Assembly (NCBI RefSeq): GCF_058153355.1
Contig: NZ_CM177019.1
Strand: one strand, 5' to 3'
Length of the DNA: 64,000 nt
In this document: positions 51,596 to 52,226 of the stretch, in pieces
How the letters are laid out: every line of letters begins with the position of its first letter
How positions within the stretch are numbered: the stretch's first letter is position 1
Program-made: the position numbers and the translations under genes
The notes under the pieces: generated by a model
What the model was told of the DNA's origin: nothing
Databases searched by the model: none
The model's input: only the letters and a program-made list of their open reading frames with translations

Positions 51596-51637
51596 CTTGT
51601 TACCTGATGCAGCGTATACGCCTTATCTGGCCTACGA
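51596..51637. repeat. REP-like element immediately upstream of intron
   Basis: CCTGATGCAGCGTATACGCCTTATCTGGCCTAC matches REP consensus; intron 5' end lies 2 nt after it. Confidence 0.65.
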
Positions 51638-52226
51638 GTGCGACAAGAAGTCGTCCAACATATTGTTTTGATAAATTATTTATATAAAACCAACTATTCC
51701 ATTAGTTGTAGCCTACTGAGGCAGGCAAAGCTGGTAACGGCTCTGTCTGAAGCCCTTGGGACAATGTAGCTTAGCAAATATTGCTTCAGTTAATCGTGAG
51801 AAAACCTGATCGCTACAAGCATCATGCGGCGAGAGCGCTAGGCTGGGCGGTATGGTTAACATAGTGAACTGTCGTTAAACGTCGTAACAGAGAACGAGCC
51901 AAAGATGCTGATAGGCTTGCACCAAAAGGTAAGGGGTAAGGCTATTCCTGTTCGTAGTGGGAATACATGGACAATAACTCCCCCGGCGGATAGACAGAAC
52001 CTAACCCGTTCTTTGTATGTTGGTCGGAACTTGGTAAGCCCGAATTCTCGCCCTAGTGGCAGGGGCACCGTAAGGCAAACTGATGAGAATGCGGGTAAAG
52101 GAGGATGGAAAAAGCGAAAGCCGGACTGTAATCGTGCGGATAGAGGTTCAATATTTGCCTTAACGGGAAACCGTGCTGACTTCCATCTGGTCTTTAATTG
52201 CGAAACATCTGCGAAGGTTTCTTTGG

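Follow-up and report, generated by a model that had tools for sequence, protein, structure and literature searches.

A group II intron of plasmid hok/srnB toxin genes in a chromosomal REP of Escherichia coli: guide sequences, target sites and probable origin of the insertion

Group II introns of class C (IIC) insert after intrinsic terminators or attC hairpins and recognise the stem-loop itself, and they have neither EBS2 nor an endonuclease domain. Another described layout is that of subgroup IIB1, to which EcI5 and T.el4h/Th.e.I3 belong, the T.el4h protein being termed IIB1/CL1 (PMC8643678). In the scheme of Monachello et al., a 5-bp EBS2 and a 6-bp EBS1 are separated by a 2-nt gap; the middle base of the 3-nt spacer 5' of EBS2, which is followed by an A, is called EBS2a and pairs with position -14, and this EBS2a-IBS2a pair is required for the mobility of EcI5 (PMC8643678). 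A third system is IS621, whose published target, ATCAGGCCTAC, has CT as its core and is tolerant at position 4 (PMC11208160). How does a group II intron that abuts a REP compare with these systems? One such intron lies in a stretch of 64,000 nucleotides of an E. coli chromosome (NCBI RefSeq assembly GCF_058153355.1, contig NZ_CM177019.1), called the window below. In the searchable literature neither hok/srnB nor REPs were found described as the site of a group II intron.

The gene uspA ends at 51535 and is followed by a terminator and then by the REP, whose approximate limits are given in Table 1; dtpB starts at 54210, and the insertion lies between the two genes. The 5' flank ends with ...CTTATCTGGCCTACGA, and the two junctions read ...GGCCTACGA/GTGCGAC...CCCGAC/TCTGCG, where a slash marks a junction here and below. 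Both ends agree with the group II rule GUGYG/AY, with GUGCG opening the intron and ...GAC closing it. When the flanks are joined, the resulting 601 nt are 100% identical to the unoccupied uspA-dtpB spacer of another E. coli strain, and because this match to the uninterrupted spacer is precise, the two boundaries are exact. The 5' splice site, which the initial annotation had put at 51637/51638, is thus confirmed by the exact coordinates, the precise empty site and the EBS1-IBS1 pairing described below. The spacer was found in 5,419 of 5,426 complete E. coli genomes. In K-12 it holds opposite-strand overlapping small ORFs, yriB and one for a 17-aa hypothetical protein (L050, 264-348); the insertion point of the intron falls inside both, so that both are broken in the window strain. 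Elsewhere in the window, AgrB, an antisense-type small RNA unrelated to the intron, is matched by Rfam at 61411-61493 on the plus strand (RF02891, 95.7 bits).

The insertion starts with a ribozyme of domains I-III, continues with an ORF within domain IV, and ends with domains V and VI. The domain I core is matched by Rfam RF02012 at 51690-51837 with 112.5 bits (gathering threshold 34), and domains V and VI by RF00029 with 65.5 bits (gathering threshold 40). The encoded protein contains the Pfam domains RVT_N, RVT_1, GIIM (maturase) and HNH endonuclease, scores 369.5 bits with NCBIfam TIGR04416 (group II RT/maturase, cut-off 300), and has as its nearest solved chain that of the T.el4h protein (6ME0_C, E = 2.4e-187, full length). 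By SNP comparison, near-identical copies of the intron occupy several distinct sites. The element can be taken for an ordinary mobile group II intron, of IIB1 type and to all appearance intact, whose RT/maturase contains an endonuclease. In the plasmid srnB copies L003 and L025 there is a stop at intron position 2261 (window 53898), five codons early, so that their protein has 554 aa and that of the window 559 aa; K264T is a further difference of the window copy.

Table 1. Positions of the intron, its guide and target sequences, the REP and the IS621-family copies in the window
Feature	Position	Strand	Basis or remark
Complete group II intron, 2,359 nt: 5' GUGCG, domains I-III ribozyme, 3' ...CCCGAC	51638..53996	+	
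REP (Y-type, degenerate), tail GGCCTAC	51600..51635	+	Alignment to window REPs, palindrome
IBS2a (T, -14)	51624	+	Watson-Crick with EBS2a A51886
IBS2 (ATCTG, -13 to -9)	51625..51629	+	4 of 5 pairs with EBS2; A-13 mismatched
IBS1 (CTACGA, -6 to -1)	51632..51637	+	6 of 6 Watson-Crick pairs with EBS1
EBS2a (A), middle base of 3-nt spacer UAA (51885-51887), followed 3' by A	51886	+	
EBS2 (CAGAG), unpaired in consensus fold	51888..51892	+	Covaries with -13 to -9
EBS1 hairpin, stem 51943-51949/51959-51965, 9-nt loop 51950-51958	51943..51965	+	RNAalifold
EBS1 (TCGTAG), candidate of the initial annotation	51952..51957	+	Fold and covariation
EBS3 candidate (U in GGAUAG), directly 3' of closing helix 51984-51988	51991	+	
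Intron-encoded protein, 559 aa, intact	52236..53915	+	Pfam, NCBIfam, solved-chain match
Domains V and VI, AGC triad, bulged branch A	53920..53996	+	RF00029 alignment; triad and branch A by eye
IBS3 (T, +1)	53997	+	Mismatched with EBS3 U
IS621-family copy A, 1,279 bp, in REP at ATCTGGCCT/AC	23706..24984	+	
IS621-family copy B, in REP at ATCAGGCCT/AC	48990..50267	-	

Which bases of the target are read by the intron RNA? The initial annotation had noticed that the hexamer TCGTAG is the reverse complement of the final six bases of the 5' exon and had proposed an EBS1-IBS1 pairing, with a chance of about 1 in 8 that such a match is accidental. The figure was reproduced (P = 0.12 when the 535 nt upstream of the ORF are shuffled), and the hexamer occurs only once in the intron. 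A fold that put TCGTAG in a paired region would have spoken against the proposal; in the RNAalifold consensus of 13 homologues it is unpaired and lies in a 9-nt hairpin loop, all 7 pairs of the hairpin stem show compensatory changes, and so do 15 of the 18 predicted helix pairs of the EBS region (13 sequences). When the match is limited to the four hexamer positions of the loop, its chance is about 0.001. Moreover, chance is excluded because exon and EBS1 covary: at position -6 in the close family, CTACGA sites go with TCGTAG, and TTACGA sites go with TCGTAA or a G.U pair. The pairing of TCGTAG with CTACGA is therefore well founded, both by its place in a hairpin loop and by covariation with the exon.

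An assignment of EBS1, EBS2 and EBS3 from a fold of domain I had also been proposed, and all three could be assigned from fold and covariation, with a candidate EBS2a in addition. EBS2 and its target change together, as CAGAG/CTCTG at srnB, CATGA/TCATG at hok and CATAA/TTATG at a hok of Salmonella, and further away as TCGGC/GCCGA in an IncI plasmid intron and CGTAT/ATACG in Acerihabitans. The spacer that holds EBS2a sits between the helix 51880-51884 and EBS2. In the alignment, EBS2a and -14 form a Watson-Crick pair at the REP sites and in all five distant relatives; hok and srnB sites have the combinations G.U, G.A or A.A, and with wobble included 68% are paired. In 12 of 13 loci the base aligned with U51991 varies in step with +1, and all four bases (U/G/C/A) are in use. 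This EBS3 lies in an internal loop of domain I rather than in a delta-delta' arrangement of type IIA, and 88% of its combinations with +1 are paired (19 constructs). The pair is absent from the window copy, where U51991 would need an A at +1: the base is A at all hok/srnB sites and at both other REP sites, and T in the window.

A formal pairing count was made on 19 exon-plus-intron constructs, one for each insertion site, with 500 shuffles and with slid controls. The proportion of paired guide-target cells is 88.2%, against 65.5% in the shuffles, none of which reaches the observed value, and double-sided changes are seen in all 13 guide-target pairs. When the partners are slid by 1-3 columns, the pairing falls to 28-50%. 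For EBS1 and EBS2, 91% and 88% of the cells are paired, with double changes in 11 of 11 pairs and again 0 of 500 shuffles at the observed level. Cognate guide and target combinations give 10-11 of 11 pairs, and combinations across target classes give 3-7. It should be noticed that L020, L014 and L018 are under 1-nt shifts of alignment or boundary in the automated EBS table and so are mis-scored there; by eye, GGACAC in L020 pairs with GTGTCC. The intron of the window makes 12 of the 13 guide pairs at srnB (-14 missed), 12 of 13 at the gsk and rsmC REPs (-13 missed), and 11 of 13 at the REP of the window (-13 and +1 missed). For the conserved G-8 and C-7, no pairing partner adjoining EBS1 or EBS2 was found, and since these bases are also absent from two ectopic sites, they are not required. 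As far as the sequences tell, the specificity of the intron is fully explained by base pairing.

There is a further question of concern, whether the 5' flank is a REP at all, and if so of which kind. Aligned with each of the eight others in the window, of which two had to be pieced together over the IS621 copies, it agrees at 28-34 of 41 positions, and its sequence is an imperfect palindrome. An E. coli REP is an imperfect palindrome of roughly 35 nt, extragenic and repeated in the genome, whose tail is GGCCTAC; by these marks the flank is a genuine REP. The motif GGCCTAC occurs at 12 sites in the window where 5.3 are expected. That the intron target would overlap the REP 3' end had been suggested from the beginning, and indeed IBS1 and IBS2 extend over the GGCCTAC tail. 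The REP of the uspA-dtpB spacer ends with TATCTGGCCTACGA/T and the srnB site with ...CTCTGGCCTACGA/A, and 12 consecutive bases are identical between them. A REP that fits the guides has T at -10 and GA after CTAC, as in sites of TCTGGCCTACGA type, and a typical REP tail reads …ATCCGGCCTACAA. The eight remaining REPs of the window do not fit, since -10 is C or A in them and CTACGA is replaced by CTACA or CTACT. Judged by its pairing potential, only a rare REP subtype suits the intron guides, and typical REPs are unsuited. At -1, the uspA REP has G in K-12 and O157 (CTACGG/T; about position 300 of L050 and L051) and A in the window lineage. Among the 5,426 complete E. coli genomes, target availability was measured as the presence of three specific empty sites: only 24 have the exact uspA 40-mer and 3,181 the rsmC 40-mer (1,068 at >=99% identity), and the 31-mer of the gsk REP is the most widespread, as given below.

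Where do the relatives of this intron live? In PLSDB there are 20 records with a full-length relative (76-99.6% identity) from E. coli, E. albertii, Salmonella, Citrobacter and Enterobacter, and in 19 of the 20 the final codons of a hok/srnB toxin gene are interrupted by the intron. Most contigs from an exact protein look-up likewise carry it in hok/srnB; 5' junctions of this kind are those of L001-L010, L025, L028, L030-L031, L035, L037-L043, L046-L049, L052-L053 and L055-L056. The junction reads ...ATGGCTTACGA/ATCCGG in hok and ...CTCTGGCCTACGA/AGCACG in the srnB-like gene. The survey of homologous sites thus returned mostly sites outside REPs, but these have the same IBS1 as the REP of the window, and three REP loci are occupied as well. 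Joining the exons restores the toxin ORFs, which end with ...AAFMAYESGK (hok) and ...VQVTLAYEARK (srnB-like) before the stop. The intron sits in frame within the last toxin codons (…AYE/…), and the ORF of the type I toxin is complete only once it is spliced. One such plasmid has an uninterrupted hok 1 kb upstream, which ends with ...GGCTTACTAA and is without G at -2; that it was left empty is consistent with the specificity of the intron.

Further away the picture is as follows. Species-representative genomes gave only 8 distant relatives (47-61% identity), none of them in a REP, and these served solely for the covariation. The distant relatives as a whole (47-66% identity) are located in IS66 genes, at an IncI backbone site and elsewhere, with guides that differ to match; no REP insertion is among them. 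A scan of JGI metagenomes for the REP/srnB-intron junction gave no match, and with a broader junction pattern it gave 5 contigs, four with hok and one with another site. Two relatives have unusual structures. In L021 (NC_014234.1), on an IncI plasmid, the match falls into two pieces, some 300 nt of sequence are additional, and the match as listed stops in domain I shortly before the EBS1 hairpin; this may be due to an insertion or a duplication. In L014 (Ktedonobacter racemifer), two more domain V/VI matches lie directly upstream of the intron at 812-1894, which suggests tandem or nested introns.

Is the REP insertion of the window then an isolated case? The 5,426 complete E. coli genomes hold no chromosomal copy of the intron, and it is present there in two plasmids only. 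Additional loci were obtained from draft assemblies by exact-sequence look-up of the protein and its 90% cluster mates. They show the srnB-type intron (EBS2 CAGAG, EBS1 TCGTAG) in three different chromosomal REPs of different strains, namely uspA-dtpB (the window), rsmC-leuV (L022, L045) and ybaL-gsk (L026, L027). All three REPs have the same 16-nt end, CTTATCTGGCCTACGA, and the 5' junction of REP and intron is NNNNTCTGGCCTACGA/GTGCGACAAG. At rsmC-leuV and ybaL-gsk the junction is CTTATCTGGCCTACGA/A; more fully, the site beside the leuV tRNA reads ...GCGTCTTATCTGGCCTACGA/AGGGCT, as seen empty in strain KE55, and the ybaL-gsk site reads ...ACGCCTTATCTGGCCTACGA/ACCGAC. A single fortuitous ectopic event had been considered on the basis of curated collections, which contain plasmid hok/srnB copies only, and this account was overturned by the two further REP loci. 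The srnB-type intron is also found at one chromosomal site without the appearance of a REP (L044). In the initial annotation the intron was thought to be aimed at REP 3' ends; the recurrence in three REP loci agrees with this, and what has to be given up is the reading of a REP specialist, in view of the prevalence of hok/srnB sites in PLSDB and the empty chromosomes of the complete genomes.

The SNP comparison gives some direction to this distribution. The gsk REP copy L026 and the plasmid srnB copy L003 differ by 0 SNPs. L027, L044 and L045 share one sequence, at 2 SNPs from L003. A third group is made up of the window copy with L022 and L023, which differ among themselves by 1-2 SNPs and from L003 by 10-11, and this sublineage has so far been seen only in REP sites or in contigs with the flank unresolved. 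The copies in the rsmC REP (L022, L045) belong to two sublineages, 7 SNPs apart, so this REP was entered at least twice. The srnB sublineages run deeper, about 2% apart, which shows srnB to be the older home. In L029 (GCA_042204225.1, intron at 912-3270), the 5' flank is plasmid srnB and the 3' flank is chromosomal ybaL-gsk; this is either an assembly chimera over two intron copies or a plasmid-chromosome recombination via the intron.

Taken together, it is very likely that we are dealing with a plasmid hok/srnB-homing IIB1-type intron, and that the REP subtype matching its guides is a recurrent secondary chromosomal target of an srnB-adapted sublineage. It is the occupation of two further REP loci that makes the REP subtype a recurrent secondary target, rather than a chance landing place or the main home. 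We take srnB for the primary target and the REP for the secondary one on grounds of distribution and phylogeny, not of pairing quality, since EBS2a pairs at the REPs. This gives a scenario in which the lineage has its home in plasmids, at the final codons of the type I toxin genes hok/srnB, and its RNA would select DNA by pairing EBS2a with -14, EBS2 with -13 to -9, EBS1 with -6 to -1, and EBS3 with +1. An intron RNP, probably from an IncF plasmid copy or another chromosomal copy, would have reverse-spliced into the uspA-dtpB REP, and HNH cleavage followed by target-primed reverse transcription would have fixed the insertion. The intron is co-oriented with uspA and dtpB, and the GC skew of the plus strand over the whole window is -0.03. 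This negative skew would put the intron in the leading-strand template, which is weak evidence that the endonuclease-dependent route suits better than lagging-strand priming.

Could the REPs instead be the selected home of the sublineage, which would be switching or have switched from srnB to a dispersed chromosomal safe harbour, with the srnB copies as relics? The intron occupies three REP loci, at least one of which it entered twice independently, the EBS2a A makes a Watson-Crick pair with T-14 of the REPs and not with A-14 of srnB, a pair that is essential in EcI5 (PMC8643678), and the sublineage of the window copy, L022 and L023 is the one without a copy seen in srnB. However, every copy has the EBS2 CAGAG, which makes 5 of 5 pairs with srnB and 4 of 5 with the REPs, so there is no guide change specific to REPs. 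The EBS2a A is common to all three srnB sublineages, which are about 2% apart, and is thus older than the REP insertions. Besides, none of the complete genomes has a chromosomal copy, though 5,151 of the 5,426 offer the gsk REP target, and the deeper relatives are all in hok. We therefore consider a REP home improbable. That the adjacency to a REP is a one-off accident, by non-specific retrotransposition or as a recombination artefact with EBS1 matching by chance, can hardly be believed, for although a single hexamer match has P = 0.12 and the intron is very rare in chromosomes, EBS1, EBS2 and EBS3 all covary with their targets, 12 consecutive bases are common to the flank and the srnB site, the intron is also present in two other REPs that end with the same 16 nt, and the ectopic sites L005, L036, L044 and L054 retain 5-6 of 6 IBS1 pairs.

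If the REP subtype is a secondary target of an srnB-adapted intron, why does it coincide with the target of another mobile element? Both IS621-like copies of the window had been placed at the CT core of GGCCTAC, and their junctions, ATCTGGCCT/IS/AC for copy A and ATCAGGCCT/IS/AC for copy B, bear this out in the form ATC(A/T)GGCCT/AC and agree with the published IS621 target. The two 326-aa ORFs are IS110-family RNA-guided transposases (NF033542, 253-255 bits), and RefSeq annotates the element as 'IS621 family'. The IS621 donor sequence, which would confirm the ends of the element, was not found in the text of PMC11208160. Of the 5,426 complete E. coli genomes, 2,244 contain elements of this family; the median is 5 copies, and nearly every copy is chromosomal. 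The 11-mer ATCTGGCCTAC at 51625-51635 is the same as the target of copy A (23695-23705 plus AC), and because it is intact upstream of the intron, the occupied REP is still a potential IS621 target. IS621 would recognise this overlapping 11-mer, ATC(A/T)GGCCTAC, through its own bridge RNA; the 11-mer falls within the -13 to -3 region of the intron target, and the intron insertion point is 4 nt downstream of the IS621 crossover. The coincidence can be traced to the toxin gene, as the srnB codons L-A-Y-E (CTG GCC TAC GAa) spell the tail of the REP.

A bolder proposal is that the sublineage is colonising the REP subtype TATCTGGCCTACGA as a dispersed landing pad, aided by the pair of EBS2a (A) with T(-14), and that the intron RNP and IS621 have converged on the same 11 bases. 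We regard this as conceivable but rather doubtful. If it is true, the 11 bases at the tail of the REP serve two unrelated RNA-guided systems as a safe harbour. Under the preferred reading of a plasmid intron with a secondary REP target, the case still offers several points. The natural target code (EBS2a, EBS2, EBS1 and EBS3) is resolved for an uncharacterised endonuclease-containing IIB1-type intron of E. coli, and a site-specific retroelement would be seen escaping from a plasmid gene to the chromosome by sequence mimicry. The hok/srnB toxin genes and a REP subtype are added as group II intron targets, and the overlapping target of IS621 and the intron is a natural case in which two RNA-guided insertion systems can be compared on one sequence. 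The mechanism is a textbook one and the target choice is new to the searchable literature, so that the value is descriptive and not conceptual.

How, then, does the locus stand beside the known systems? With EcI5, from E. coli pO157, and T.el4h/Th.e.I3, it has in common an EBS2 that reads -13 to -9, an EBS1 that reads -6 to -1, an EBS3 that lies within domain I in an internal loop, and, in the place of EBS2a, a base two nucleotides 5' of EBS2 that is followed by A. The T.el4h protein aligns from end to end with that of the window, which has RT, maturase and HNH domains, and as the nearest solved relative it suggests CL1 as a possible lineage. Unlike these introns, the intron of the window has other guides and another natural target, that is, hok/srnB and the REP subtype. 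IS621 resembles it in pairing RNA with DNA at the same REP 3' end, and differs in using a DEDD/serine recombinase and a bridge RNA in place of a ribozyme and a reverse transcriptase; judged by their frequencies on chromosomes, IS621 is a true REP specialist and the intron is not. IIC introns are similar in their intergenic position beside a palindromic structure and downstream of a terminator. In contrast to them, the intron of the window possesses EBS2 and HNH, its recognition is explained by sequence pairing, and introns of its type are also found inside coding sequence, in hok/srnB.
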